The position numbers and the translations under genes were made by a program. This document shows, one piece after another, positions 1 to 13,525 of a stretch of 13,525 bases of DNA. The DNA is from Candidatus Nanohaloarchaea archaeon (lineage in GTDB: Archaea; Nanohalarchaeota; Nanosalinia; Nanosalinales; Nanosalinaceae). The stretch lies in contig JBKHHG010000020.1 in the NCBI GenBank assembly GCA_046539225.1, positions 1-13,525 on the forward strand. The letters run 5' to 3'. How positions within the stretch are numbered: the stretch's first letter is position 1; the number at the start of each line of letters is the position of its first letter. The notes beneath the pieces were generated by a model. The model searched no databases, was not told the DNA's origin, and saw only the letters and a list, made by a program, of their open reading frames with translations.

Positions 1-217
1 TCAATGCGGCATCATAATCAGTGTTATCAAAGCCGTCAAGCGTAGCCTGGAACGTGGCCTCAGTCTCTTTTACATCAGTAACAGAATCAGTTGTAATATT
101 TATTGCGTCTTCCCCTGTTTCCTGAGTGGTGATCTGGCCGGAGGCAAAAGTCACTGTTAATGCTGCGATTGTTAGAAGTGTTAGGCCTGTTAGTATGTGT
201 TTTCTACCGTAATCCAT
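1..217 (-). CDS. Secreted/surface protein, N-terminal part only (continues beyond window start); possibly Ig/fibronectin-III-like
   Basis: Read by hand, not in the ORF track: ATG at 217, open to the window edge: MDYGRKHILTGLTLLTIAALTVTFASGQITTQETGEDAINITTDSVTDVKETEATFQATLDGFDNTDYDAAL. It has a basic n-region, a hydrophobic h-region and an A-S-G cleavage-like site (signal peptide), then Thr/acidic beta-strand-like sequence. Confidence 0.75.
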   Translation of the reverse strand, partial: MDYGRKHILTGLTLLTIAALTVTFASGQITTQETGEDAINITTDSVTDVKETEATFQATLDGFDNTDYDAAL

Positions 218-285
218 TCTATCTATATTTACTTTCTTTTACATTGTTTTTATTGGTTTTCCGTTTTCTCTATCTAATTCTAAAC

Positions 286-1863
286 CTAGTTTACTGTAAG
301 ATTTCTTTCGTCTGCGTTCTCACTCTCAGTAGTATCCGGTACTGCTATTGAGGCCTGCCACTCATATTCGCTGGCGTTGACTTCTTCTTCAAAGCTTATG
401 CTTTCATCGGATTCACTGATAGGTTCCTCGAAACTGAAAGATTCCGGGTCTTCTTCCTCTCCGGTTTCCTGGCCTGAAACAGTTAGTTCAACGTTAGTTT
501 TCAGATCGAAGTCGGCTTCAAATGTTACGTTGCCATCGATCTCCGCCCCGTCTTCAGGCCTCTCCACGCTGAAGCTTCCGAAGTCGTCATAGGCTCTAGT
601 ATTTTCTATCTCTCTTTCGGATGAATCCCAAGTCCCTCCTTCATCCCTCACTTCTATCCGGTAGTCTTGGACTCCTTCCTCTGAAATCGGAGTGGTTAAA
701 GCATCATCTCCCTCTATAATGTTGAGGCCTGGTTCTAAACGAGTTGAGGCCTCTTCTCTGCCTTCTACCATAACGTAGGCTGTCTGACCTCTACGAGCAT
801 TTTCCACTTGGAACTCGAAGTCTTCTTCCGCTTCAACTGTATCTCCATCCGAAGGACCTGTCAAAGTTATTTCAGCACCTTCATATTCTGGATCGGCTTT
901 CATGTAATCAGTATCAGTCTCGGTGAATCCTTCGGAATCCTCGACTTCTAGGTCGATGTCATAGGGTCCTTCCTCCGGAATCTCGTATTCAACTTCTTCC
1001 CCTTCAAGAGTATCGTTGAAGTCTTCATGGTCAAAAGTCCATCTATACTCCTCAACAGGATTCTCGCTTTCAGTTTCGGAGGCGTCAAATGTAACTGTTT
1101 CTCCAGCATATTCTGGCCCCGATCTCTCAAATGATGGATCAATATCACCTGATATTTCGCCAGAGTCGTCTTCCTCGTAACCCTCTACTTCAAAACTGTC
1201 TGAAATTTCCGAGGCCTCAAGTTCAAGGGTCTCAGTGTTTGGAACTGTGAAGGTGTAGCTTCCTCCGATGGTTGTCTCCGCCTCTTCTCCGTTGACCGTG
1301 AACTCTTCACGGGGTTGAAGCTCGTCGTCCCTGTAAAGCTCCAATCGGGCGGTCTCTCCCGCCACAGGATCCTCTTCAAACCTGAAACCTGTGAAGGCCT
1401 CGTCTTCCTTTCCGTCTTCTTTTGATTCGTTAGAGGGCTTCGAGTCATCGAAACCCGGATTTTCATCTGGTTCGGATTCTTCATCTACAGGAATCAATGT
1501 CGAGGCCTCTGTGTCGTTGATGGATGCATTGATCCTGAAGTCTTTATCCAAGGCCTCGAAACTTATTACGCCTTTAGAGTTGGTGTCGCCGATGTAGAGG
1601 CCTTCCAATCTGACTTCAGCGCCTTCAACCTCTTCTTCGTCTTCCACGACTTTCAACTTGGATACCTGACCCGGGATCAGAGGTTCTTCCTCTGGTATGA
1701 TCTCAAGGCCTTTGGTTTCCCGGGTTTCACCCGGTTCCTGAAGATTCAGTATCAGGGCTCCGAGAACAAGTCCGAGGACTACTATAACGATTGCCCAGTA
1801 AGTCAGAAGTCTTTCATCCAGTTCGTACTGCCCGACTTGCATACCTCTGTAAACCTCTACCAT
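286..1863 (-). CDS. Membrane-anchored acidic cell-surface protein with a PKD domain and several Ig-like modules
   Basis: N-terminal TM helix (YWAIVIVVLGLVLGALIL); PKD signature AGETVTFDAS..S...VEEYRWTFD...G..VEY....G.Y.I.LEVEDSEG; two P-x-D-G Ig-type modules (GPSDGDTV, RPEDGAEI); 7 N-x-S/T sequons. The true start may be the second ATG at 1842 (TTAAAA box at 1872-1877 is ~30 nt upstream of it). Confidence 0.85.
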   Translation of the reverse strand: MVEVYRGMQVGQYELDERLLTYWAIVIVVLGLVLGALILNLQEPGETRETKGLEIIPEEEPLIPGQVSKLKVVEDEEEVEGAEVRLEGLYIGDTNSKGVISFEALDKDFRINASINDTEASTLIPVDEESEPDENPGFDDSKPSNESKEDGKEDEAFTGFRFEEDPVAGETARLELYRDDELQPREEFTVNGEEAETTIGGSYTFTVPNTETLELEASEISDSFEVEGYEEDDSGEISGDIDPSFERSGPEYAGETVTFDASETESENPVEEYRWTFDHEDFNDTLEGEEVEYEIPEEGPYDIDLEVEDSEGFTETDTDYMKADPEYEGAEITLTGPSDGDTVEAEEDFEFQVENARRGQTAYVMVEGREEASTRLEPGLNIIEGDDALTTPISEEGVQDYRIEVRDEGGTWDSSEREIENTRAYDDFGSFSVERPEDGAEIDGNVTFEADFDLKTNVELTVSGQETGEEEDPESFSFEEPISESDESISFEEEVNASEYEWQASIAVPDTTESENADERNLTVN

Positions 1864-1954
1864 CTATTCCATTTTAAGTCTACCGCCCGGCAGCCCACAG
1901 CTTTTAGAGCCCTAAAGAACAAGTTAAAGGCCTCAAAACTTGGCTTCAGGCCCT

Positions 1955-3370
1955 TCAACCCTTGATATTCACTACAGGCCTCATCCTGGCTACTTTCTCG
2001 CCGATTCCAAGGCTATCTGAGACTTCGATAACTTCATCCACATCCTTGTAGCTTCCAGGGGCTTCTTCAGCGATCGTAGAGCCCGAGGCGGCTTTGACGT
2101 GGATTCCTTCACGTTTCAGGTCGTTTTTAACGTCTTCTCCCCAGTAATCCTGCTTGGACTGCGACCTGCTCTTCAAACGGCCGGCGCCATGAGCCGTAGA
2201 GCCGAAGGAAAGCTGCATAGAGGCCTCTCCACCTGAAAGAATATAGCTGGAGGTTCCCATTGTTCCAGGAATCAGTACTGGCTGGCCTGATTCGCGGTAG
2301 GCCTCTGGAACTTTTTCATGTCCTGGGGGGAAGGCCCGTGTCGCGCCTTTCCTGTGGACGATAACGTCTTTCTCCTCTCCACCTACTTCATGGGTTTCTT
2401 CTTTCGCGATATTGTGGCAGACGTCGTAGACCATCTCTACTTCCTGATGGTCGAGCAAAGTATCGAAACATTCTCTCACAGCCTGTGTCAAGGCCTGTCT
2501 ATTGGCCCAGGCGAAGTTCGCAGATGCATACATCGCCTCCTTGTAGTCCTGCGCTTCCTGAGAGCCTATAGGAGCGTAGATCAAGTTTTTCTCCGGGATG
2601 CTCGATGCAATATCTGGAAACGCTTTTTCGAACTCTCTGACGTAGTCGGAGCAGGTCTGATGCCCTAAACCCCGGGAACCTGAGTGTATCATGACCAGTA
2701 CCTGATCTTTTTCCAAGCCGTAGGCCTCAGCTTTTTCCTCATTGAATACGTTTTCAACTACCTGGACCTCCAGGAAGTGGTTTCCGCTGCCAAGACTCCC
2801 CAGCTGTTTCAGGCCTCGTTCTTTAGCTTCTTCAGGAACTTTTTCCGGGTTTCCGGGCAGTCTACCTGATTCTTCGCATCTTTCAAGGTCTTTCTCCTGG
2901 GCGTGACCGTTTTCAAGCATCCATTCCATTCCTTTTTCGAGTATCTGCTCCATTTCTTCTCTGTCGATGTCGATGTAGCCTCCTTTTCCGAGGCCTACCG
3001 GGATCTTGGAGTATAGAATGTTGGCGAGCTGCTCCTCTTTTCCCTGCAGGTCTTCTTTTGTTAGGCCTGTTTTGAGGACTCTGACGCCGCAGTTGATGTC
3101 GAAGCCGATTCCTCCCGGGCTTATAAGGCCTTTTTCTGCGTCGAACGCTGCTACACCGCCTATAGGAAATCCGTAGCCCTGGTGACCATCGGGCATGACG
3201 CATACGTGTTTTTCGACTCCCGGCAGCTCTGCCATGTTGCAGGCCTGTTGTAGGGTGTCGTCGCCTTTGATGTTTTCAAGGAGTTTTTCCGAGGCGTACA
3301 CCTTTGCAGGCACGTTCATTTCTTCCTCGAAGATGTTGTAGATATTGTCTTCGACTTTTTCGATCTCCAT
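1955..3370 (-). CDS. rtcB: RtcB RNA-splicing/repair ligase (3'-phosphate/5'-OH ligase)
   Basis: RtcB motifs present: MPDGHQGYGFPIGGV, SPGGIGFDINCGVR, QLGSLGSGNHFLEVQ, HSGSRGLGHQ, HNIAK, HRKGAT, STAHGAGR (guanylylated His), EEAPGSYKDV. Start placed at ATG 3370 (MEIEKV) because the ORF-track extension to 3442 overlaps archease. Confidence 0.97.
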   Translation of the reverse strand: MEIEKVEDNIYNIFEEEMNVPAKVYASEKLLENIKGDDTLQQACNMAELPGVEKHVCVMPDGHQGYGFPIGGVAAFDAEKGLISPGGIGFDINCGVRVLKTGLTKEDLQGKEEQLANILYSKIPVGLGKGGYIDIDREEMEQILEKGMEWMLENGHAQEKDLERCEESGRLPGNPEKVPEEAKERGLKQLGSLGSGNHFLEVQVVENVFNEEKAEAYGLEKDQVLVMIHSGSRGLGHQTCSDYVREFEKAFPDIASSIPEKNLIYAPIGSQEAQDYKEAMYASANFAWANRQALTQAVRECFDTLLDHQEVEMVYDVCHNIAKEETHEVGGEEKDVIVHRKGATRAFPPGHEKVPEAYRESGQPVLIPGTMGTSSYILSGGEASMQLSFGSTAHGAGRLKSRSQSKQDYWGEDVKNDLKREGIHVKAASGSTIAEEAPGSYKDVDEVIEVSDSLGIGEKVARMRPVVNIKG

Positions 3371-3401
3371 GTTCAGCTTTGGGGGTAAAAAACTTTTGAA
3401 G
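3371..3401 (-). promoter_or_regulatory. Candidate BRE/TATA-like element for rtcB (CAAAAGTTTTTTA)
   Basis: AT box at 3386-3398 in the 31-nt archease-rtcB spacer, similar to the AAAA(G/C)TTT elements upstream of 4445 and dph2. Confidence 0.35.
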
Positions 3402-3812
3402 TTAGACATCGAGAACCGCTTCCAGCACCCACCCGTCTTCAAAGTCGACTTTCATCTCGTTGTACGTCGGCGCCTTTATATCGAGAAGGCTCATGTCGGA
3501 TGTGATGTTGTCGACAAGCACCGAGGCCTCGATCCGCCACTCATCTTCTAACTCTTCCACATCCATCTCTTCTGCATGAGAAATAGCGACGCCTTCAGTC
3601 TCCTGGAGAAGGATCAGGCGGTCGAGAAAGTCGTAGAGCAAGGCCTCCAGGGACTCGCTTTTTACGTTAATGGTGTGATGGTACATTCCCTCTGTGTCGC
3701 CGCCGACGATCTCGGCAAAGGCCTTTACTGCTTCTGAAAAAGCTTCTTCTATGGATTCGCCTGAAGCCCTGAATTTTTCGTCTGCCGAGTGTTCAAGTAT
3801 CTTGTAGCTCAC
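3402..3812 (-). CDS. Archease (RtcB activator)
   Basis: N-terminal YKILEHSAD, E..F..A..A, SLEALLYDFLDRL, IKAPTYNEM and C-terminal AVLDV match the archease family; adjacent to rtcB. The GTG start overlaps the upstream stop (GTGA). Confidence 0.95.
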   Translation of the reverse strand: MSYKILEHSADEKFRASGESIEEAFSEAVKAFAEIVGGDTEGMYHHTINVKSESLEALLYDFLDRLILLQETEGVAISHAEEMDVEELEDEWRIEASVLVDNITSDMSLLDIKAPTYNEMKVDFEDGWVLEAVLDV

Positions 3813-4369
3813 CTGATGTACACCTCGAGAACCCTGTCCATTAGTTTTTTGGTCTCTTCCACACTTAACTCTGTATCATCGATCACTATATCGTATACCG
3901 ATAGATCATCGAGATCTATTCCGTAGTGCCGGGCATACCTCTCCGCATCGCTTCTATCCCTTTTCTCCACTTTTTTCAAGGCCTCTTCTCTTCCAATGTT
4001 TTCACGTTTCGCCACTCTTCTACCCCTTTCCTCAGGATCGGCTTTCAGCCTCAGCTTCAGATCCGTGAAACCGTCCAGAACTCTTGAACCTATACGCGAA
4101 TCGATGACACAGCTCTCGGAGAGGCCTTTCTCAAAAATTTTCCTGTCAACGTCCAAGTCAAGCTCTTTCCTGGCCTCGCCGCTTAACTCTTCCAGATCGA
4201 GGCCTTTTTCCTCCGCAGCCTGTCTAAATATTTCGCCGGCTGAGACACGTTTTGCACCAAGCTTTTCCGCTGTATAATCCGCTAAAACGTCTTTACCTGC
4301 TCCCGCCTTGCCATCAATCATTACAAGTACATCGGACTCTCTTTCGCCTTTCAGGTCAAGGCCTTCCAT
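3809..4369 (-). CDS. cmk: Archaeal-type cytidylate kinase (NMP kinase family)
   Basis: P-loop DGKAGAGKD, SAGEIFRQAAEEKG, DLDVDR, IDSRIG, LKADPEERGRRVAKRE and RYARHYGIDLDDLSVYDIVID match archaeal CMP kinases. Confidence 0.88.
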   Translation of the reverse strand: MEGLDLKGERESDVLVMIDGKAGAGKDVLADYTAEKLGAKRVSAGEIFRQAAEEKGLDLEELSGEARKELDLDVDRKIFEKGLSESCVIDSRIGSRVLDGFTDLKLRLKADPEERGRRVAKRENIGREEALKKVEKRDRSDAERYARHYGIDLDDLSVYDIVIDDTELSVEETKKLMDRVLEVYIR

Positions 4370-4444
4370 AAACTTTGTATCGTGTCAAGAGGCTTTAAAC
4401 CCACACCGCAATAAGTAAAAACTTTTGTCTCTTGAAGGTAAACA
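4370..4444. promoter_or_regulatory. Divergent promoter region between cmk and the winged-helix gene
   Basis: TTTAAA at 4394-4399 (25-30 nt upstream of the cmk ATG); TAAAAACTTTT at 4416-4426 upstream of ATG 4445. Confidence 0.55.
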
Positions 4445-5488
4445 ATGAGTGATGAGGAGCTGGCCGATATACACGCAGCCCTGAGCGACCAGAGAAAAAT
4501 CGAGGCCTTGAGATATATTCCGGATTCAGAATCTCAGAAAGATGTCGCCGAGGAGATAGGAGCATCTGATGGGACTGTAAGCAAGTATATCTCTGAATTC
4601 GAGGACACAGGCCTCCTTGAACGCATTCCTCTTCGGCATTATGAACTGACGGAGAGAGGCGAGAAAGCTCTTTCCAGCGAGCTATTGGAGGCCTCCACAC
4701 AGGCCGTTAAAGACCCTTTGGAGGATCTATGGCCGGCTCTCGCCTATGCATCCTGCAACAATCCTGAATACGCGGGCGACATAAACCTGAGACAGATAGC
4801 GAGACAGAAAGGTATCAAAACCCGGTATGTAACACGTATATTTCAAAAAGCGGAAGGTTCAGGTTATATAGAGAAAAACGGATGGGGCGACTACAGCATC
4901 ACCGAAAAAGGCGCGGAGCTGGTGCAGGAAGGATTCGATTTTGAGGAAGAAAACGTAGAGTATCAGGAAAATGACTGGAGAGGCCTGATCGAAAGACTGG
5001 AGGAACAGGATGAAATTGACCGGCTCTGGCCGGCTTTGTGTTATGCATTTACGGACTCGATAAACCAGAAAGACCTGAATGATAAAGGTTTTACGACCGC
5101 CGCTCTCAAAGAAATTTTTAACTCTGCCGAAGACCAGAACTACATCGAAAAAGAAGGCCTCAACTTTCAGATAACCGAGGAAGGATCGGAGATCGTACAG
5201 AAAGGATTCGATTTTGAAAAGAAAACCGTGGAGTATCAGGAAAATGACTGGGAAGCCTTGATCGAAAGACTGGAGGAGAAGAATAGAGATAAAGACCGGG
5301 AAGGCTCCGTAAGCACCCGGGAAGTGAAGACGGTTAACACCGACTCTATAATCCTTGAAGGAGGCCTGATCATTCCAAAAAACCGTGGAAGTTTTCCAAA
5401 GGTAGAAGAAGGCGACGAGATCCGGGTTGAGAACACTGGAGAGAGGCACAGGCATACACCTTTTGAAAGAGCCGCTCCACTCGACTGA
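4445..5488 (+). CDS. Multi-winged-helix DNA-binding protein (ArsR/MarR-like N-terminal wHTH, two duplicated wHTH-like units, small C-terminal beta domain)
   Basis: ALSDQRKIEALRYI...SQKDVAEEIGASDGTVSKYISEFEDTGLLER...YELTERG is a classic wHTH. Two further repeats follow the pattern LWPAL.YA...IF..AE...YIEK.G...ITE.G.E.VQ.GFDFE...VEYQENDW..LIERLEE. Confidence 0.85.
   Translation: MSDEELADIHAALSDQRKIEALRYIPDSESQKDVAEEIGASDGTVSKYISEFEDTGLLERIPLRHYELTERGEKALSSELLEASTQAVKDPLEDLWPALAYASCNNPEYAGDINLRQIARQKGIKTRYVTRIFQKAEGSGYIEKNGWGDYSITEKGAELVQEGFDFEEENVEYQENDWRGLIERLEEQDEIDRLWPALCYAFTDSINQKDLNDKGFTTAALKEIFNSAEDQNYIEKEGLNFQITEEGSEIVQKGFDFEKKTVEYQENDWEALIERLEEKNRDKDREGSVSTREVKTVNTDSIILEGGLIIPKNRGSFPKVEEGDEIRVENTGERHRHTPFERAAPLD
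4922..5277 (+). repeat. Intragenic direct repeat, period 273 nt (91 codons)
   Basis: Identical blocks: AAGGATTCGATTTTGA (4929/5202), GAGTATCAGGAAAATGACTGG (4958/5231), TGATCGAAAGACTGGAGGA (4986/5259). Confidence 0.95.
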
Positions 5489-5536
5489 AAGCAGGAAAAC
5501 CGGGTTTCATTACTTTAAGCGAGGAGTAAAAATTCA

Positions 5537-5938
5537 ATGAGTTCAGGAAAAGAAAATGGTTTGACAACGGAAGAGATAAAGCGGCTTCAAAGTATTAAAG
5601 AAGAACAGGCTAAAACAAATACCAGTAAAACGTATCCTGATGAGTGGAGTGGCGGAGAACTGGATGATCATTTCTACCAGCAGGAGTATCTGGATGTAGC
5701 GACTGAGGTAAAAGATTCTGGGAGAGACCTGGTAAAAACAAGCCGTATCGCCGATTCTGTAGATCTGGGGACGCGGCAGACCGGCCAGTACCTGAAAAAT
5801 ATCGCGTATGCGTTGGGCGTGGCAGCGGAGGACTACAGGTTCATGGAGACTTCACAGCTTACGTGGAATCTGGAGGCCTTCCGGAATGAGGAGCTTGAAG
5901 AGTTCTGTAGAGAAATCGCCAACGGCCTAAACAGTTGA
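5537..5938 (+). CDS. Hypothetical small winged-helix/HTH protein
   Basis: VKTSRIADSVDLGTRQTGQYLKNIA resembles an HTH, and a later TW motif recalls small haloarchaeal wHTH proteins (DUF7123-like, from memory). Acidic composition; TTTAAG and GAGGAG upstream. Confidence 0.65.
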   Translation: MSSGKENGLTTEEIKRLQSIKEEQAKTNTSKTYPDEWSGGELDDHFYQQEYLDVATEVKDSGRDLVKTSRIADSVDLGTRQTGQYLKNIAYALGVAAEDYRFMETSQLTWNLEAFRNEELEEFCREIANGLNS

Positions 5939-5955
5939 TTCAAATACTGGAAAAG

Positions 5956-6030
5956 CGCGGAGCCCGGGATTTGAACCCGGGTCTTCACCGTGACAGGGTG
6001 AAATGATGGGCCGGACTACACCAGCTCCGC
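5956..6030 (-). tRNA. tRNA-Asp (GTC), intron-less, CCA not encoded
   Basis: Reverse complement folds as a cloverleaf: acceptor GCGGAGC/GCTCCGC, D arm GTGTAGTCCGGCCCATCAT, anticodon stem TCACC/GGTGA with loop CTGTCAC, T arm CCGGG-TTCAAAT-CCCGG, discriminator G; followed by CTTTT. Confidence 0.98.
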
Positions 6031-6060
6031 TAATTGTATCTCAGTATTGAACTGGAATTC

Positions 6061-6067
6061 TTTTAAA
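6061..6067 (-). promoter_or_regulatory. TATA box of tRNA-Asp (TTTAAAA)
   Basis: TTTAAAA on the minus strand 31-37 nt upstream of the mature tRNA 5' end. Confidence 0.65.
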
Positions 6068-6076
6068 TGGTTCAAA

Positions 6077-6562
6077 CTAGTTCTCAGGAAGAAACCCGGT
6101 CTCACCTACTAGGCCTTCCATTTTCCACACAACTAAACTCCCTATCAAAAATCCAATTAAAGCACCCGCTACAACATCCTGGATAAAGTGGACGCCTATC
6201 ACGACTCTTCCGATAGCTACAAGAGATGCAACAGAGATAAACCAGTATCTAAGGCTTCTGTAACGCCATCCTAAGACTGCTGCAACCATGAAAGCTGTAG
6301 CGGCATGGCCTGATGGGAAAGAGTAGGTGAGAACTTCTTCGGCTCCAGAAGGCCTAGGAACAGCAAAAAATATTTTCAAGCCATGGACAACCAAGGAATT
6401 GATTACAGATGCTACTAAAAGTACTCTACCGGTGATTTTTTCATCCAAGAACTCTAAAGTTATGATGTAAATAGGCAGCATATACAGGGATCCCAGGCCT
6501 ACGATCTCCCCGAATCCTTTTTCAATCAGAACTTCTAAACCAACATCTTCAAAATCCATCAT
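6077..6562 (-). CDS. PAP2-family membrane phosphatase (lipid-carrier pyrophosphate phosphatase-like)
   Basis: All three PAP2 motifs: K-x5-PRP (LKIFFAVPRP), SFPSGHA, GRVVIGVHFIQDVVAG; several TM segments. Confidence 0.93.
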   Translation of the reverse strand: MMDFEDVGLEVLIEKGFGEIVGLGSLYMLPIYIITLEFLDEKITGRVLLVASVINSLVVHGLKIFFAVPRPSGAEEVLTYSFPSGHAATAFMVAAVLGWRYRSLRYWFISVASLVAIGRVVIGVHFIQDVVAGALIGFLIGSLVVWKMEGLVGETGFLPEN

Positions 6563-6673
6563 TCTAAGCTTGATATGAAATGAATATTGAAGTAAGTTAA
6601 CGTTTAAACTTCAACTATTCCCGATATCTTTAAAACCAAATAAAAGGTATGAATCTATTTATTTGTCCAGTTA

Positions 6674-6680
6674 TTTTAAG
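6674..6680 (+). promoter_or_regulatory. TATA-like box of the GT2 gene (likely leaderless)
   Basis: TTTTAAG 23-29 nt upstream of ATG 6703. Confidence 0.5.
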
Positions 6681-6702
6681 TTTCCTTTTCTCTTCGTAAT
6701 CT

Positions 6703-7971
6703 ATGGCCTTTAAGAAGTCCATCGAATGGCTGTTTTTTATCACGATCTCGACGCTTTTACTGTTCAGAGGAATGTGGAACGGTTTTGGTACAGTTTCATA
6801 CTCGTTGAATCTTTTTTCAGTGGCTATAGATGTTATACTGCTTGATGCAATTTCATCTAACATTTTATTTACTCTGTTTATGTTGTTGGGCGGAGGCCTT
6901 CTCTTCCGGGAAGTCAACTCGAGGAAAAAGAGTAAGGAGCTTGTTTCAGGCCCTCTCATAGAAGCCATAGTACCTGTTTATAATGACGCAGAGGTTTTAT
7001 CTAACAGCGTTGATAGCCTTAATGATTCCGGCTATCAGGATCTTAGAATTAATGTGGTCTGTGAGGAAGAAGATGAGGAAAGTATTGAAGCAGCAGAGAA
7101 ACTGGACTGCGAACTAATTATCAATGACTATCCTGGGTCTAAAGCAGGAGCCATAAACACTGTTTTTGAGAGACGGGACTCAGAGTACTTCGCGATATTT
7201 GATGCAGATGAGTTGGTGCACAAGGATTTCCTGCCAAAGGCTATGGGCTACCTAGAAGAGGGCTACCAGGGTTTCCAGGGAAGGCGAGTGCCGATCCCTT
7301 CAGGCCTTATAGAAAAATTTGCTTACTGTGAGAGAGCCCTGTTCCATACCGCATACAAGATTTCCGAGTTCAGCGGATTCAGAAACCTGAGGAGTTCATC
7401 CACAGTTATGAAACGAGAAGTCTGGGAAACCGTAGGAGGATATGAAGACCTACTGACCGAAGACCTTGACTTCCCACATAAATGCTACCGGCATGGAATC
7501 CGTATCAAACAGGATAGAAGATGCACAAACCTAATGGAAGCCCCACATTCCACCAAGGACTTCTGGGGCCAGAGAAAGAGATGGAGCATGGGCCAGATCC
7601 AGATACTCCACAAGGCCTTAAAAGGAGGATACTCCAAGAACTTCACAGTCAGAGGAATGGTCTCAAACTTCAGGATAGTGATGGGTATCCTAGTTCCATT
7701 ACTGATGCTAGGCCTCTTATCAAAGTTTATTATCTTAACTTTGCTAGGCCTAGAGACATTCTACTTGATGCCTGTAATCGCCACATCATTATTAGCCCTA
7801 ATACTATCTTTCAAAGACATTAAACGTCACCCAATCAAATTCATAGGACTTTACTCGATCTTAACCAACCTGGCAGTACCTATAACCGCCCTCTTAAACA
7901 TTAAATCCTTCTTCGAATACATAATAAGCTGGAACGGTGATTGGTACGAAGTCGACAAAAAGGGAGAGTAA
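6703..7971 (+). CDS. Processive GT2 glycosyltransferase (cellulose synthase/PgaC-like), integral membrane
   Basis: IVPVYND, SKAGAIN, FDAD (DxD), TEDLD and QRKRW (QxxRW) motifs, with N- and C-terminal TM helices. Confidence 0.93.
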   Translation: MAFKKSIEWLFFITISTLLLFRGMWNGFGTVSYSLNLFSVAIDVILLDAISSNILFTLFMLLGGGLLFREVNSRKKSKELVSGPLIEAIVPVYNDAEVLSNSVDSLNDSGYQDLRINVVCEEEDEESIEAAEKLDCELIINDYPGSKAGAINTVFERRDSEYFAIFDADELVHKDFLPKAMGYLEEGYQGFQGRRVPIPSGLIEKFAYCERALFHTAYKISEFSGFRNLRSSSTVMKREVWETVGGYEDLLTEDLDFPHKCYRHGIRIKQDRRCTNLMEAPHSTKDFWGQRKRWSMGQIQILHKALKGGYSKNFTVRGMVSNFRIVMGILVPLLMLGLLSKFIILTLLGLETFYLMPVIATSLLALILSFKDIKRHPIKFIGLYSILTNLAVPITALLNIKSFFEYIISWNGDWYEVDKKGE

Positions 7972-7998
7972 AATAAACTTCAGGCCTATATGATAAAT

Positions 7999-9177
7999 AT
8001 GAACTTTGTAATCATAGGAGATGGAGTAGCAGGAGCGACCGCCGCAGAAAAGTTAAGGAAAGAGGATGAAGAGGCCTCAATCAAAGTCTTCACAGAGGAA
8101 TCAGAGCCGCTCTACAACCGCATCATGCTCAAAAGCTACATGAAAGGCGAGCTACCCGGCAAAAAATTCGCCAGGATGCACGACAAGGCCTGGTACGAAA
8201 AAAAAGATATAGAACTCTTCCTTGAAACCAGAGTAACCGACGTAAACCGTGAAGAAAACACCGTAAAGACAGAAAAAGGCGGAAAACACTCCTACGACAA
8301 GCTGCTGATCGCTACAGGAGGATCACCCAGAAAACATCCTCTCGACGAAAACTACGAAAACGTTGAGTACATGTGGAGCATTGAAAGCTCTGAGAAAGTC
8401 AAGGAATCGGCAGAAAGCTCTGAGAAAGCCGTGGTAATCGGGGGAGGCCTACTGGGGATAGATTTAGCCGTTACATACGCAGCACATGACTGTGAAACAT
8501 CCTATCTTATCAGAGCGGATAAGTGGTGGCACAGAGGCCTCTCAAAAAAGGGAGCGGAGATAATACATCAAAAACTTGAAGAAAAAGGTGTTAACGTTGA
8601 AACAGGTACGGAGGCCTCGAAATTCGTAGGAGAAGAAAAAGTTGAGAAAGTAATAGCAGGGGAAAAAGAGTATGAATGCGATGCTGTCGGAATAGCTATA
8701 GGCCAGACCCCTAACTCGGGTTTAGTGGGTGTAGAGAAAGATGAAGCGATGATAAAGACCGATGAATTTCTTCAGACCTCGGACCCGGACATCTATGCCG
8801 CAGGCAACATGGTAAAGTATTACTCTCCTGTACTTGAAAGGGAAACTGTCAAAGGAGCCTGGGATCACAGCGAGGCGATGGGAGAATGCGCCGCTGAAAA
8901 CATGACCGGCGATCAGAGGCCTTTCACATTTGTAAACACCTATGGCGTCGGCCATTTCGACACGCAGTTCCTGGCGATCGGCGACTGGACCGGCGAATCT
9001 ATCTCGAGAAAGTATTCAGAGAATGAATACAGAAGATTGTTCTTCAAAGATGACAGGCCTGTCGGCGCAGTGATGATCGGATTCACCAAAGGCCAGGAAC
9101 GAATCAAAGAAATGATCAGGGAAAAAGAAGAGATCGAGGATCGAGAGGCCTTGCTGAAGAAGAGTTTCTGGAGTTAG
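7999..9177 (+). CDS. FAD/NAD(P)H-dependent oxidoreductase (pyridine nucleotide-disulfide family; rubredoxin/ferredoxin reductase-like)
   Basis: FVIIGDGVAG (FAD Rossmann), EPLYNRIMLK, YDKLLIATGG, VVIGGGLLG (NAD Rossmann), TDEFLQTSDPDIYAAG. Start placed at 7999 (alternative 7990); TAAAATAAA lies 22-30 nt upstream of 7999. Confidence 0.92.
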   Translation: MNFVIIGDGVAGATAAEKLRKEDEEASIKVFTEESEPLYNRIMLKSYMKGELPGKKFARMHDKAWYEKKDIELFLETRVTDVNREENTVKTEKGGKHSYDKLLIATGGSPRKHPLDENYENVEYMWSIESSEKVKESAESSEKAVVIGGGLLGIDLAVTYAAHDCETSYLIRADKWWHRGLSKKGAEIIHQKLEEKGVNVETGTEASKFVGEEKVEKVIAGEKEYECDAVGIAIGQTPNSGLVGVEKDEAMIKTDEFLQTSDPDIYAAGNMVKYYSPVLERETVKGAWDHSEAMGECAAENMTGDQRPFTFVNTYGVGHFDTQFLAIGDWTGESISRKYSENEYRRLFFKDDRPVGAVMIGFTKGQERIKEMIREKEEIEDREALLKKSFWS

Positions 9178-9179
9178 TA

Positions 9180-9875
9180 CTAATAGATCTGTTGGAAAGT
9201 TGCTATCATTTCTTCTTCATCTATCTGTAGGTAGTGTCCGTCCATTAAAGCTCCGTTTGTCAGGATATGTAGAGAACCTGAATTAAGCCGATATTCTTCA
9301 CCAGAATCAGGAAGATTAAATCTTATCGTATCATCATCTTTATTGCGTGTTGCATGTTCTGTATAATGCTCATGGCCTCTTATCATTATTTCGTATCCTT
9401 CTCTATCCATTCTATCAAAGTTATCGTCGAAATGATCTTCTTCCCACAGTCTATAGATAAAAGGCTTTATCTCATCCGGAATATCCTTGTTCCTCACTAA
9501 CCCTGTTAACCCCGCATGGGCCAAAACTCCTTTTCTCCCTCCTATTTCAAACTCAGCTATTGGTTTTTGAGTTATGCTTTCAAGATACTCTCTGGCTTCC
9601 TGATCGTTCTCAAGATCTCTTAACAGTTCTCCGGGAGTCTTTGATGTCCTTGAAGTCACCTTATAATCTTCTATCAAGGCCTTATCATGGTTTCCTCCTA
9701 CGTCCACCACGTTTTCTTCTCCAAACCGTTCTCTAAAATCCAGAAATTCATTTATAGACTCTACAGTATCAAAATCCCCTAAAGAGAATAACCGGTCTTC
9801 AGAAGCAGGGTCCTTCTCCTCCAAGAATGTCTGAATACTGGCCCCATGGTAATCCCCGATGACAAATACTGTCAT
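9180..9875 (-). CDS. Calcineurin-like metallophosphoesterase (PPP/YfcE-like)
   Basis: Five metal-binding motifs: IGDYHG, LGDFD, GGNHD, AHAG, RGHEH. The ATG at 9875 overlaps the upstream TGA (ATGA). Confidence 0.92.
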   Translation of the reverse strand: MTVFVIGDYHGASIQTFLEEKDPASEDRLFSLGDFDTVESINEFLDFRERFGEENVVDVGGNHDKALIEDYKVTSRTSKTPGELLRDLENDQEAREYLESITQKPIAEFEIGGRKGVLAHAGLTGLVRNKDIPDEIKPFIYRLWEEDHFDDNFDRMDREGYEIMIRGHEHYTEHATRNKDDDTIRFNLPDSGEEYRLNSGSLHILTNGALMDGHYLQIDEEEMIATFQQIY

Positions 9876-10594
9876 GGATAATACCACCCATCTATCATCT
9901 CGGGTACAAATCCTTTTTCCTCATATACTCTATCTTGTATTACCTCTGAATGATCTGCAACTCTATCCTTAACTTCTTCAATACCTCTATCATACTCTTT
10001 ATGTAGGCCAGCTGAAAGTTTCGCATACATTAAAGCCATGCCATAGGCAACGTCGCCGTTGGTACTGCGGTCTTCGTGTAGAGGCCAGTCTTTGATGGCT
10101 TCACGGTCCTCAAAATCGATGTACTTCAAACCATCTCCATATCTATGAACTGCTTCTGTCTTAAAGTCATCGAGGATCTGCCCTGAATCCACCAAACTAT
10201 CTACAAACTCCGTAACTTCCTCAGTAGCCTTTTCATAGCACGTACCATCCACAATACTTTCATCCGATTTCTCCTGAATTACTAAAGCAGCGTCTTCTTG
10301 CTTCACGAGAAGTTGAGGATTCTCAATCTCAGTAGTATCACATACAATAGGAGCCGAAGCCGGAAAATACTCTGAATGAACTCTTTCTATTCGATTCCTG
10401 ATATTCTCAATTTGCTCGCCCGAAAATACTTTAACTACAGCATCTTCCATAACTTCTGGATTATAGAACACTGCACTCCAGTTCCCGATCCCTATATTAT
10501 CTCCATTCTCCAAAACCTCATGAACAGGACCCCAGCCCCGTTCACAGTCCTCCATCAGTTCATCAGCCCTTGACTCAATAGGCCTTGTATCCAT
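9872..10594 (-). CDS. Protein-kinase-like fold protein (divergent; possibly a pseudokinase)
   Basis: Motifs in kinase order: Gly loop IGIGNWSAVF, beta3 AVVKVF, hinge LVIQEK, catalytic loop LDDFKTEA (DxKxxN-like), KYIDFE (DFG-like). Confidence 0.6.
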   Translation of the reverse strand: MDTRPIESRADELMEDCERGWGPVHEVLENGDNIGIGNWSAVFYNPEVMEDAVVKVFSGEQIENIRNRIERVHSEYFPASAPIVCDTTEIENPQLLVKQEDAALVIQEKSDESIVDGTCYEKATEEVTEFVDSLVDSGQILDDFKTEAVHRYGDGLKYIDFEDREAIKDWPLHEDRSTNGDVAYGMALMYAKLSAGLHKEYDRGIEEVKDRVADHSEVIQDRVYEEKGFVPEMIDGWYYP

Positions 10595-10632
10595 AACAAG
10601 AATATTGTTACCAATAAGTTATAACAGTTTTG
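10594..10632 (-). promoter_or_regulatory. BRE-TATA promoter (AAAACTGTTATAA) with an operator-like inverted repeat over the start
   Basis: TTATAA at 10619-10624, 25-30 nt upstream of ATG 10594; TAACAA-N5-TTGTTA at 10594-10610. Confidence 0.6.
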
Positions 10633-10645
10633 GTGTTCTGTCCAG

Positions 10646-11632
10646 TCATTTATTCTCCACTTCTTCCAGGACTTCAAGCGCATCCGGAGAAACGAGGGCG
10701 AGGTCTTGCCAGTCTTTGGTCATTCTGGGGCAGGCGCAGTTGACGTAGATGTCGATGCCGTAGCCTTTGTAGTCGCTTTCGAATATTCGGTCTTCTACGA
10801 AGATATAAACGTCTTTGCCGTGTTCTTCGAGTTTTTCCTTGGCGATCTGTACGGCTCGCATGTAGTTCTGGCCTTTCTTACTCGAGGTGACGATCCCCCA
10901 TTTTTCTTTGTCTTTGTGTTTGATGACGCGGGCGTGCTCGGCCCTGGTTTCGTCGTCGAGGCTGTTCGCTGGTTCTATCCATATATGCTCTTCATAGGGA
11001 TCGACGACGTAGACTTTTTTCCCTGTTTCGCTTACCTGTGAGGGGTGGAAATGTCCTGAGCCGAGGAATACGAACGCATCGACCTTCTCCGCGATGTTGT
11101 GAGCCGCTCCGGCATCACATCCGAGTACCTGGCCTGGCTCCGTTGTTCTTAACCCGGTTTTGCCTTCGACGACCTCGTATCCTTCGTCTTCAAGGAATTC
11201 GCGGGCTTCTTCGGCTCTATCCATGTACTGTGTGACGCCGACCAGGCCGATTTTTTCTTCTTCGATTTCCTCGTAGTGTTCTTTCAGGGTTGGCATGATT
11301 TCCCGGTCTTCACGGTACGGAAGGTAGTAGACGTCTTCGTCGTCCATTTCCTGGCCTTCCGGATGGAGGAACCGTGTGTGGCCGACATGGATCAGTGCTT
11401 CCGCCCCCATTCTCGAGGCTTTTTCGTCTGCGATTCCGCAGGCTCCGAAGGTTGAAGCCCCGATCATAACCGGTTCTATTCTTTTTTCCCGGAGTCTATC
11501 AGCGTATTCTATTAGTTCAGGTTTGATGCCGTCAGGGCCTTGTAAGGCTACTTTCTCGTACTTTCCCTCTATTTCTTCGAGTATTTGGTCGAGGGTTTCG
11601 TAGTTCCACTGGCTGCGGTTTTCCTCTGTCAT
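10646..11632 (-). CDS. dph2: Diphthamide biosynthesis enzyme Dph2 (2-(3-amino-3-carboxypropyl)histidine synthase)
   Basis: ALQGPDGIK, TFGACGIAD, IHVGH, GQVLGCD, GSGHFHP, KKGQ, ACPR; the three Cys ligands of the [4Fe-4S] cluster are present. Confidence 0.95.
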   Translation of the reverse strand: MTEENRSQWNYETLDQILEEIEGKYEKVALQGPDGIKPELIEYADRLREKRIEPVMIGASTFGACGIADEKASRMGAEALIHVGHTRFLHPEGQEMDDEDVYYLPYREDREIMPTLKEHYEEIEEEKIGLVGVTQYMDRAEEAREFLEDEGYEVVEGKTGLRTTEPGQVLGCDAGAAHNIAEKVDAFVFLGSGHFHPSQVSETGKKVYVVDPYEEHIWIEPANSLDDETRAEHARVIKHKDKEKWGIVTSSKKGQNYMRAVQIAKEKLEEHGKDVYIFVEDRIFESDYKGYGIDIYVNCACPRMTKDWQDLALVSPDALEVLEEVENK

Positions 11633-11661
11633 AGAGAAATTTTAGGCCTAAAGCTTTTTAC

Positions 11662-13014
11662 CTAATCGAGTTGCCTCAGCTTCTCCAGAATAAAGCTTCT
11701 CTCGGCTTTTCCCAGGGCTTCTTCGAACTCCCCGATCCTGTGTTCAGGGACGCCGAGGGAGAAACCGTTTTCCACGACCGCTTTCAAGGCCTCTCTGTCC
11801 GGATGATCGAGTAAAACAGTTAGATCGCCTGAAACATAATCCAGGGATTCAGGCAAGGCCTCAGAGTCGAGCATCCTGCCATCCAGGATCGCTGAGTCGC
11901 CTTCAAAACTGAAGACTTCGGCGTAATCTTTGAGGTAGGCCTGGCCTGGTTCAAAACCAGACTCCAGTTCCGATATGCTGTATAAAGGCGTTGCCGCCCC
12001 GGAAACAGAGGCCTGAACCTCTTTCCTTCCCTGTTTTTCTTCACCGAAGCTGTCGCCTTCTTCAACGCTTTCACACGAAAACGCGGCGGCTTTCCCGGCT
12101 TCACGGGCTTTCCTGGCATCGTTTGAGGTATATCCTCCTTTCCGGGTTACAAGAGCGTTTCGGTACTCTTCCGGAGGCAGTGTCTCATCTGAAAGCTTTA
12201 TGTCTTTTCCTACGGTGCCTTCGACTCTTTCAGGGGTTACCTGTACGTATTCGAGGCTCTGGGAGTAGCGTTCTGCTTCAAACCTGTCGACTATGTAGAA
12301 TGATCCTCTCTTGTAGACGAACTTTACGGATTCATCGGTTTCCTGCGAAAGATTTTCAAGCTCTGAGGCCTCGAAAGGCCTCTCCGGCTCGATCCTTCTC
12401 TGCCTGAACTCGCCGGTCATCGGGTTTCTCGTGACTTTCAGCTGCCTCTCCGGTATCCGGGCCTCGATCTCTTCGCCGATCGAGAACATTGTCGGAACAG
12501 TAGTCCCCTCTTCCAGTGCGATTCCAAGGCCTTCAACCGCTTCAACATAGTCTTCATCTCCTTTAATCAGCGCACCGGTATAGTCAGGCTCTATCATTTT
12601 CTGCACAAGCATATTGGGATAGTTTTCGCCGCCTTCTTCAAAGTAAGAGGCCGCAACTGTCTTCAATGCGTCTTCAATATCTGCCTTGCCGACGTCGAGC
12701 TCGAAATCGGCGTCTGACCTGTCTGAGATTCTTACAGATACTCGAGTGCTGTTTCTCTGGCCTCCAACCAGGTTTCTGGCTCTTGAAGACGCGTTCCTGA
12801 CCTCTGAGCTCATGCCTACATCGTCGTAGGCCTCTTTCACGTTTTCAATATCTATGGATTTGTTGAGAACCTCTTGAGGGTCCCTGGAGTGAAATATCTG
12901 CTCTACCTCCTCAGAAGTTACGACGAAAAAGTTCGGTACCTCGAGGTTTGCGTTGTCAAGGTTGTAGGCCTTTTCCCCATGCCTTCTCTCTATCTCTCCT
13001 TTCCATACTACCAT
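11662..13014 (-). CDS. Degenerate PEP synthase / pyruvate,water dikinase-like protein
   Basis: GEKAYNL, VPNFFVVT, VSVR, LVQKMI, EAVEGLG (ATP-grasp domain) and ALVTRKGGYTSNDARKAREAG (swivel domain; the canonical TSH reads TSN). At 450 aa it is far shorter than PpsA (~750-800 aa). Confidence 0.8.
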   Translation of the reverse strand: MVVWKGEIERRHGEKAYNLDNANLEVPNFFVVTSEEVEQIFHSRDPQEVLNKSIDIENVKEAYDDVGMSSEVRNASSRARNLVGGQRNSTRVSVRISDRSDADFELDVGKADIEDALKTVAASYFEEGGENYPNMLVQKMIEPDYTGALIKGDEDYVEAVEGLGIALEEGTTVPTMFSIGEEIEARIPERQLKVTRNPMTGEFRQRRIEPERPFEASELENLSQETDESVKFVYKRGSFYIVDRFEAERYSQSLEYVQVTPERVEGTVGKDIKLSDETLPPEEYRNALVTRKGGYTSNDARKAREAGKAAAFSCESVEEGDSFGEEKQGRKEVQASVSGAATPLYSISELESGFEPGQAYLKDYAEVFSFEGDSAILDGRMLDSEALPESLDYVSGDLTVLLDHPDREALKAVVENGFSLGVPEHRIGEFEEALGKAERSFILEKLRQLD

Positions 13015-13046
13015 GTAGTAATGTTAGTTGAAGACAATAAAAGAAT

Positions 13047-13525
13047 TTACTGCTCCATCTTGACCCTGCAGCTTACAGGCATCTTGTGAGTTGCGCGTTC
13101 CAAGGCCTTCCTGGCTTCCGGAACGTCGCCTTCATCGACTTCTACCCTGTAAACGGTCTGGTGGTCGTCGACAAGCGCTGCTCTCCCGATAGGCCTTCCA
13201 AACGGCTTCCTCATGCCTTCATAGTAACGGTCTGCCTGCGCGATTCCCGCTAACGGGTGGTAACGCAGAACGTGGTGCGGGTAAGGCCTGATTTCGAGGA
13301 AGTAGTCTTCTTCTACCTCGAGCTCTTTGCTGAGATAGGAGTTTGCCGCGATTCTTCCTGACTCCAGGGCTTCGCTTCTGATTCCGCAGCCTTCTTCAAC
13401 TACAAGCTTTACCGCTGTGTCGAAGTCTCCGTCTTCCACGCCCATACGGTACTGTGTGACTCGTGGAGCTGGAGCTCCCTTGATAAAGTTATCGCTCTTC
13501 TTCTGGCTCTGCCTGGTGTAAGGCT
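13047..13525 (-). CDS. rpl10e: Large ribosomal subunit protein uL16 (L10e), N-terminus beyond window end
   Basis: Frame is open to the window edge: PYTRQSQKKSDNFIKGAPAPRVTQYRMG...IRSEALESGRIAAN...RPYPHHVLRYH...ADRYYEGMRKPFGRPIGRAA...ALERATHKMP. Confidence 0.96.
   Translation of the reverse strand, partial: PYTRQSQKKSDNFIKGAPAPRVTQYRMGVEDGDFDTAVKLVVEEGCGIRSEALESGRIAANSYLSKELEVEEDYFLEIRPYPHHVLRYHPLAGIAQADRYYEGMRKPFGRPIGRAALVDDHQTVYRVEVDEGDVPEARKALERATHKMPVSCRVKMEQ

Follow-up and report, generated by a model that had tools for sequence, protein, structure and literature searches.

AGGCCT in the window and across the genome

The 13,525-nucleotide stretch of DNA analysed here (the window) is contig C20 of the genome of a Candidatus Nanohaloarchaea archaeon (G000; GenBank assembly GCA_046539225.1, contig JBKHHG010000020.1; 606,781 bp, 82% complete). 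Its genes, including an S-layer-like gene, rtcB, a flavoprotein reductase gene and dph2, are interspersed with copies of the palindromic hexamer AGGCCT, which is the subject of this report together with an AddAB-like gene pair encoded elsewhere in the same genome (Table 1). The hexamer is present in exactly 68 copies, one per 200 bp on average, where base composition gives 2.86; an initial annotation of the sequence had counted about 68 against about 3, and every individual position it listed (183, 351, 556 ... 13191, 13284) is correct. Within called genes the copies fall into all three frames (9, 32 and 24), precisely the three that had been named as intergenic lie outside genes, and the ten in rtcB are read once as RP, five times as x-A-x and four times as x-G-L. 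Other contexts of GGCC are scarce, as had been claimed, with 16 copies of TGGCCT plus AGGCCA, five of GGGCCT plus AGGCCC and four of CGGCCT plus AGGCCG.

Table 1. Features of the window and the AddAB-like gene pair of the same genome (on C2).
Feature	Position	Strand	Remark
AGGCCT array	183..13289	.	68 dispersed copies, a sample of the genome-wide signal
Intergenic AGGCCT	1928..1933	.	between S-layer-like gene (286-1863) and rtcB
rtcB RNA ligase gene	1955..3370	-	AGGCCT at 10/12 positions permitted by the protein
tRNA-Asp	5955..6030	-	without AGGCCT
Intergenic AGGCCT	7982..7987	.	ahead of flavoprotein reductase gene
dph2 gene	10646..11632	-	AGGCCT at 0/4 positions permitted by the protein
Intergenic AGGCCT	11644..11649	.	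upstream of dph2
AGGCCT lost in one variant	11787..11792	.	11789 G>A, run X2
addB-like gene	G000:C2:28886-31393		outside the window
addA-like gene	G000:C2:31390-34077		outside the window

The roughly 20-fold excess estimated from the window holds for the whole genome, with 2,850 sites, or 20.2 times the expectation under an order-0 model, 16.4 times under an order-1 and 5.9 times under an order-2 Markov model. AGGCCT is found on all 38 contigs, with densities of 1.7-5.8 per kb, which rules out an enrichment of the window only, and it is the most frequent hexamer of the genome, while its one-mismatch neighbours all stay at or below 1.63x. In the 731 genes of our own gene calls it occurs 2,551 times versus 449 +/- 16 in 30 synonymous-codon shuffles (5.7x, again the top hexamer), and in spacers 285 times where 8.8 are expected (32x). 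The excess thus persists after shuffling, which was done at the codon level in place of the dicodon-preserving shuffle proposed initially; the spacer excess is independent of both. No AGGCCT site lies in the tRNA genes, of which 11 were found genome-wide.

AGGCCT fills 2,531 of the 3,221 coding positions (79%) at which the encoded protein permits it, hereafter allowed positions, and seven control palindromes fill 1-24% of theirs. Codon usage leans to AGG, CCT, GCC and GGC, and the protein words EAS (2.7x), TGL (2.4x) and RP (1.6x) are over-represented. Across 228 orthologs there are 16.3 allowed positions per 1,000 residues, versus 9.0 in an AGGCCT-poor relative (G046), and the density in RpoA' is alike in the two (9.5 versus 9.4). 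The proteins of this genome are bent towards AGGCCT, even to the point of changed amino acids. A synthetic or recoded origin is refuted by the presence of the window in two public metagenome runs, which belong to one study and may be the source sample, and by the same excess in 12 other genomes; two further runs, X3 and X4, contain the window only in small shares.

Distribution among nanohaloarchaea

Genomes were classed as rich or poor by the count of AGGCCT over that of its reversed control TCCGGA in 70 genomes of the phylum, of which 13 are rich (ratio 4.3-17; next highest 1.6). In a tree of RpoA', available for 58 of the 70, all 13 rich genomes fall into one clade of 26, intermixed with 13 poor ones, a pattern that requires at least three changes of the trait. 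The comparison with related Nanohaloarchaeota that had been called for thus finds the excess in 12 others and finds it absent from close poor sisters: it amounts to 19.6x in G058 and 9.2x in G053, both rich, versus 0.64x in 353 kb of G046, and poor sisters with near-identical RpoA' carry AGGCCT at 0-1 of 7-10 allowed positions. No other iterated motif exceeds 1.65x in the same 353 kb of G046. Among 80 loci retrieved by a virus-oriented scan for triple AGGCCT sites, none was both halophile-like and rich.

One poor relative, G037, has a full-length AddAB and no AGGCCT excess, and iterates AGGWCCT instead (1,162 copies versus 683 of the reversed control; the other 69 genomes reach at most 1.14). 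AGGWCCT fills 34 of 54 allowed positions in G037 loci (L064, L240, L044) and the overlapping L265, 16 of 39 in G035, and 4-12% in other nanohaloarchaeal sets. Some members of the window's own genus (G023, L266, L455 and L471) reach only 6-7x AGGCCT, and the AddA of G023 is full-length; decay or a shifted specificity is a possible explanation of their weaker signal.

Architecture and turnover of the motif

With the sites themselves masked, AGGCCC is still enriched (2.1x in G000, 4.5x in G058, 3.3x in G053), inner mismatches of AGGCCT lie at 0.6-1.1x, and GGCC without the flanking A or T is mostly below 1x. This half-site pattern probably fits a one-strand unit, 5'-AGGCC(Y)-3', which the palindrome displays in both directions. 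In spacers a T is preferred at position -3 (0.47-0.49 versus 0.29; G000 and G058). Spacers of G058 also prefer AG ahead of the site (A 0.48 at -2, G 0.45 at -1), so that flank preference is lineage-dependent.

Neighbouring sites repel one another within about 30 bp (range 30-50 bp). With spacing studied up to 400 bp, pairs are, relative to the long-range level, 0.37 times as frequent at 6-14 bp, 0.59 times at 15-23 bp and 0.61 times at 24-32 bp, and 63 other palindromes show no deficit at these spacings (1.05-1.41). Fill rises with the distance to the neighbour, from 0.44 at 6-15 bp to 0.85 beyond 100 bp. It is 0.84 for positions whose neighbours are far away, falls to 0.62 when a single neighbour lies within 30 bp, and comes to 4 of 15 when both are close. 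The longest gaps between sites are low-GC islands. Shared genes are weakly enriched over unique ones (fill 0.81/0.72, 0.74/0.72 and 0.54/0.45 in three genomes), and sites turn over, as only 42% of the AGGCCT positions of G000 are still allowed in G058 orthologs.

An AddAB-like gene pair

Genes that accompany the motif were sought by subtraction: G058 and G053 share 706 proteins as reciprocal best hits, of which 432 were left after removal of the 274 with a good match in poor-genome DNA, and 431 of these proteins were scanned with Pfam at cut-offs of 1e-3 to 1e-12. Among the survivors is an adjacent AddAB-like gene pair. The addA-like product combines a UvrD helicase motor with a C-terminal Cas4/RecB-like nuclease, its catalytic motifs being intact in rich genomes, and the addB-like product (842 residues) combines an inactive helicase-like domain with a PD-(D/E)XK nuclease domain. 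Both proteins score under the NCBIfam cut-offs for addA and addB, hence they are regarded as a divergent AddAB-like family.

Sequence and profile searches of the AddB-like protein against the PDB returned nothing meaningful. A predicted model of its residues 1-440 (predicted local distance difference test, pLDDT, 92.7) has B. subtilis AddB as the best of 48,161 chains (Z 18.0, root mean square deviation 4.3, 408 residues aligned), ahead of Rep (Z 15.4), AdnA (13.2) and RecC (12.2); Foldseek places UvrD first by E-value and AddB first by TM-score (0.58-0.60), and Atlas is in agreement. The second protein is thus predicted to fold like Bacillus AddB, the Chi-reading subunit. Related pairs are widespread in Halobacteria (L271-L329), often plasmid-borne, and also appear in Thermoplasmata and Bipolaricaulota records; AGGCCT is not enriched there. 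A transfer of addB into genus g18 is not supported (approximately unbiased test, p 0.247).

Co-occurrence of motif and enzyme

The addB-like gene and a full-length AddA including the nuclease are each found in 13 of 13 rich genomes. In 11 of the 13 poor members of the same clade the pair is missing or the nuclease is cut from the main AddA: the latter ends at 755-775 residues, before the nuclease, in five (G043, G046-G049), and AddA was not found in six (G044, G045, G055, G057, G059, G060). G048 has an extra full AddA copy and G049 a separate nuclease piece, and the remaining two, G035 and G037, encode a full-length AddA.

In genus g18, AddAB is encoded by the two rich genomes, in which no ortholog of Mre11-Rad50 was detected, whereas the four poor ones have Mre11 with an adjacent Rad50 and no AddAB. 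Genus g17 has both AddAB and Mre11-Rad50 and shows half the signal (9x), with a fill of 51%, the weakest of three genomes measured. Orthologs of Mre11-Rad50 were detected in 8 of the 70 genomes (g17, four of g18 and G061; query L199:11565-12746), and an Mre11 ortholog was not found in G000, G026, G039 or G046. Most nanohaloarchaea seemingly have no Mre11-Rad50, and some yield neither this pair nor AddAB with the queries used; G058 additionally encodes a divergent SbcCD-like pair.

Thirty metagenome loci, certain of which duplicate genome records, were compared in the same way. Where the AddA end is readable, all eight rich loci are full-length, and all five loci with a truncated AddA lie at 0-2.5x, including L462 and L463, near kin of the rich g18 type; seven further loci are full-length yet poor; six of these belong to other clades than the rich ones, L474 being the exception. 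The AddB residue Q203 is present in 11 of 11 rich loci versus 5 of 34 others, and R49 and Q203 are, by correlation, candidate Chi-binding residues.

AGGCCT as a probable Chi-type signal

The balance of the evidence tips towards AGGCCT being a Chi-type stop signal of the AddAB-like helicase-nuclease of G000. Counts, distribution, gene pair and co-occurrence are direct observations, the fold comes from a model, and that the enzyme stops at the motif is proposed by analogy: in B. subtilis AddAB, resection halts at Chi, whose binding pocket is shared by AddB and the nuclease of AddA (PMC4614115). By the same token, the AddAB-like enzyme would degrade broken DNA ends until AGGCCT is reached, where the 3' strand would be spared and handed to RadA; if the unit read is the one-strand 5'-AGGCC(Y)-3', the palindrome would be effective from both sides. 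Site-bearing alleles would be kept during repair or import and site-less alleles resected and overwritten, a drive for which selection, since sites would limit self-degradation, may be substituted with similar predictions. Either force could fill about 80% of the protein-permitted places and alter amino acids, a site beside another site would gain less, and upon loss of the AddA nuclease or a switch to Mre11-Rad50 the force would be gone and the motif would decay. The 'recombination signal' that the initial annotation mentioned as a side alternative is thus favoured, through the link of the motif to the AddAB-like pair.

The chances appear about even for a wider picture, in which nanohaloarchaea use a bacterial-type AddAB replacing Mre11-Rad50, and AGGCCT would be the first Chi known from archaea and the first with a palindromic sequence, brought to near saturation by biased repair, rewriting proteins, switching to AGGWCCT and lost with the AddA nuclease. 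A full-text literature search, with most subscription papers outside its reach, returned no description of an AGGCCT excess, AddAB or Chi in nanohaloarchaea, and no archaeal Chi site paired with its enzyme turned up in it. Why some genomes fill with one palindrome, as with the highly iterated palindrome HIP1, has been an open question for 30 years; a Chi-type AGGCCT, if true, would provide a methylase-free route to such palindromes, and since motif, enzyme and alternative repair pathway all vary among close relatives, the cause is directly testable.

Several observations weigh against a Chi-type signal. The AddA nuclease appears necessary, not sufficient, for AGGCCT richness: 19 of 57 poor genomes retain the nuclease domain, as do dozens of loci from haloarchaea and other groups that are not enriched in AGGCCT (0-1x in haloarchaeal loci encoding the pair), and no other iterated motif was found in G035, G065 or the haloarchaeal and other AddAB loci (10-30 kb each). 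G048, with its second full AddA, sits at a ratio of 1.6; L474 is full-length but poor, its AddB residues 49 and 203 being changed, and L468 stays at 1.9x despite the 'rich' AddB residues. The six genomes in which AddA was not found are 74-96% complete, there are only two to three phylogenetically independent contrasts (sign test, p >=0.5), and the subtraction covered 36% of one poor genome, so that other genes may have been lost together with AddAB; many of the 431 scanned proteins have no Pfam family. The AddB-like protein has no Walker A motif and only two cysteines, the four Fe-S cysteines being absent. Known Chi sites have a polar orientation and a lower density, which in E. coli is one per 5 kb (PMC8022716), whereas the palindrome itself has no polarity, the 5'/3' asymmetry of AGGCCV varied between genomes and the replichores were not clean. 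Core genes are just slightly fuller than unique ones (0.81 versus 0.72), and the 30-50 bp repulsion has a shorter reach than expected from a plain resection-distance model; an enzyme footprint matches so short a range better than break distances do.

Alternative explanations

The strongest alternative, although unlikely, is that AGGCCT is the binding site of some other sequence-specific protein, for instance a nickase, a repair factor or a chromatin protein, and that AddAB was co-lost in streamlined lineages. The short repulsion and the T at -3 would suit any protein footprint, AGG-CCT versus AGG-W-CCT resembles a dimer with altered spacing, and the shared proteins outside Pfam families offer room for such a factor. 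However, the candidates tested fail, as Mrr is present in just 4 of 13 rich genomes, whereas of five poor genomes all 5 have NucS and 4 have RadC, and a binding protein leaves unexplained why the motif should follow the loss of just the AddA nuclease domain, or the replacement of AddAB by Mre11-Rad50.

An origin of the HIP type, in which AGGCCT or GGCC is marked by a methyltransferase and new sites arise through methyl-directed repair (the Elhai model, PMC4390886), is very improbable. AGGCCT is palindromic and of the restriction type, it tolerates deviations chiefly at its outer bases, as HIP1 does, and methylated AGGCCT is known in Alcanivorax (PMC12128166). The suggested search for an orphan methyltransferase, however, revealed no DNA methylase among the Pfam families examined that is common to the four single-contig rich genomes (G039, G052, G053, G058): C5 (PF00145) and D12-class (PF02086) methylases are absent from these and from G000, and N4/N6 methylases (PF01555, PF02384) are represented just by unshared type I/III genes or a weak match to a gene also in poor G046, so that none of the four families tracks the motif. 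Poor G046 instead encodes a full-length M.HaeIII-like (GGCC) methylase, with GGCC at 0.47x, the opposite of what methylase-linked repair leads one to expect. Of the initial HIP1-like proposal, the hyper-abundant, frame- and coding-independent palindrome in a nanohaloarchaeon therefore stands, and methyltransferase-linked repair as its cause is not supported by the families examined; an unrecognized modification enzyme may nonetheless be present. C5 methylases occur in two of the most AGGCCT-poor genomes, L002 (G046) and L001 (G063), and ACGT is at 0.2x in G046. Published methylome data, in the text available, concern GDGCHC in one strain (PMC10266531, PMC11001535).

A DNA uptake signal, whereby a pilus-linked receptor would prefer AGGCCT-bearing DNA and recombination would raise its frequency, has a similarly small chance of being correct. 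Near-saturation and amino-acid reshaping, the latter seen in the higher density of allowed positions relative to G046, are reminiscent of uptake sequences, and pilus-type ATPases are encoded. Known uptake sequences are, however, longer and non-palindromic, no receptor candidate was identified, and a tie between motif and AddA nuclease would not be expected from uptake. That the excess follows from biased codon or amino-acid use, or from faulty assembly, can be dismissed; the initial annotation had already argued against bias. Despite the shifted codon usage, this reading is refuted by the spacer excess, and also by the occurrence in three frames, the excess over codon shuffles, the recurrence in 13 genomes and the nearly unfilled positions of poor sisters with near-identical RpoA'.

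Comparison with known systems

Like the Chi sites of AddAB (B. subtilis 5'-AGCGG-3') and RecBCD (E. coli GCTGGTGG), AGGCCT is short, over-represented and chromosome-wide; it is slightly fuller in shared genes, and it co-occurs with adjacent addB-addA-like genes, whose partner subunit is modelled with an AddB/RecC helicase-like fold. In contrast to Chi, it is archaeal, palindromic and hence non-polar, exceeds the Chi of E. coli about 25-fold in density, and reshapes proteins, and the AddB-like protein, known from sequence and model, differs from AddB in the missing Walker A motif and Fe-S cysteines and in about 170 extra C-terminal residues. AGGCCT appears Chi-like by analogy on present evidence, and its membership of the Chi class is unproven.

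Cyanobacterial HIP1 (GCGATCGC) and alternate HIPs are likewise GC-rich palindromes in all frames and spacers with outer-base tolerance, and the alternate HIP of Synechococcus PCC 6312 (CAGGCCTG) includes AGGCCT (PMC5861425, PMC4390886). The sequence also switches between lineages in both cases (here AGGCCT and AGGWCCT). AGGCCT differs in being 6 bp long, in its density of 2-4.7 per kb versus 1-2 per kb for HIP, and in its tie to a helicase-nuclease; judged by the Pfam families searched, it appears to lack the cognate methylase by which HIPs are recognized. The Chi-like octamers of Thermococcales (AGCTCCTC, TCCCAGGA) are over-represented archaeal motifs with a proposed Chi role, but in the available text they derive from counts alone, with no enzyme, and differ in sequence and lineage (PMC2718504). 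UvrD-Cas4-like fusions (pfam12705) share the combination of superfamily 1 helicase and PD-(D/E)XK nuclease and occur in bacteria and mesophilic archaea; they adjoin type III restriction-modification or Dcm/Vsr genes, whereas the pair described here has an AddB-like partner and a housekeeping neighbourhood, and the accessible part of that source reports no link to a motif (PMC5704561).

Imported genes and further observations

The dph2 gene of the window, which is devoid of AGGCCT (Table 1), is 88% identical to its ortholog in poor G046 versus 82% to the rich orthologs, and its identity of 82-88% between genera compares with a median of about 58%. It is polymorphic in reads at 11456-11519 and is likely a recent import, exchanged between lineages. 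A similar pattern is seen for radA of G053, which is 86% identical to G046 versus 65-67% to G000 and G058. AGGCCT may flag recently imported genes and aid the binning and tracing of the DNA of these symbionts. Among the 40 variants listed of 183, one hit an AGGCCT site and none made a new one.

Further features of the window include a cluster of rtcB, archease and cytidylate kinase genes on the minus strand (1955-4369) and a 347-residue protein of repeated winged-helix units (4445-5488) with a weak match to the Sso10a family of chromatin proteins. A 450-residue protein (11662-13014) has no NCBIfam match; by eye it resembles a degenerate N-terminal part of phosphoenolpyruvate (PEP) synthase. 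CTAG is strongly depleted in G000 (0.1-0.2x versus codon shuffles), and G024-G026 of the same genus retain CTAG in their RpoA' loci.

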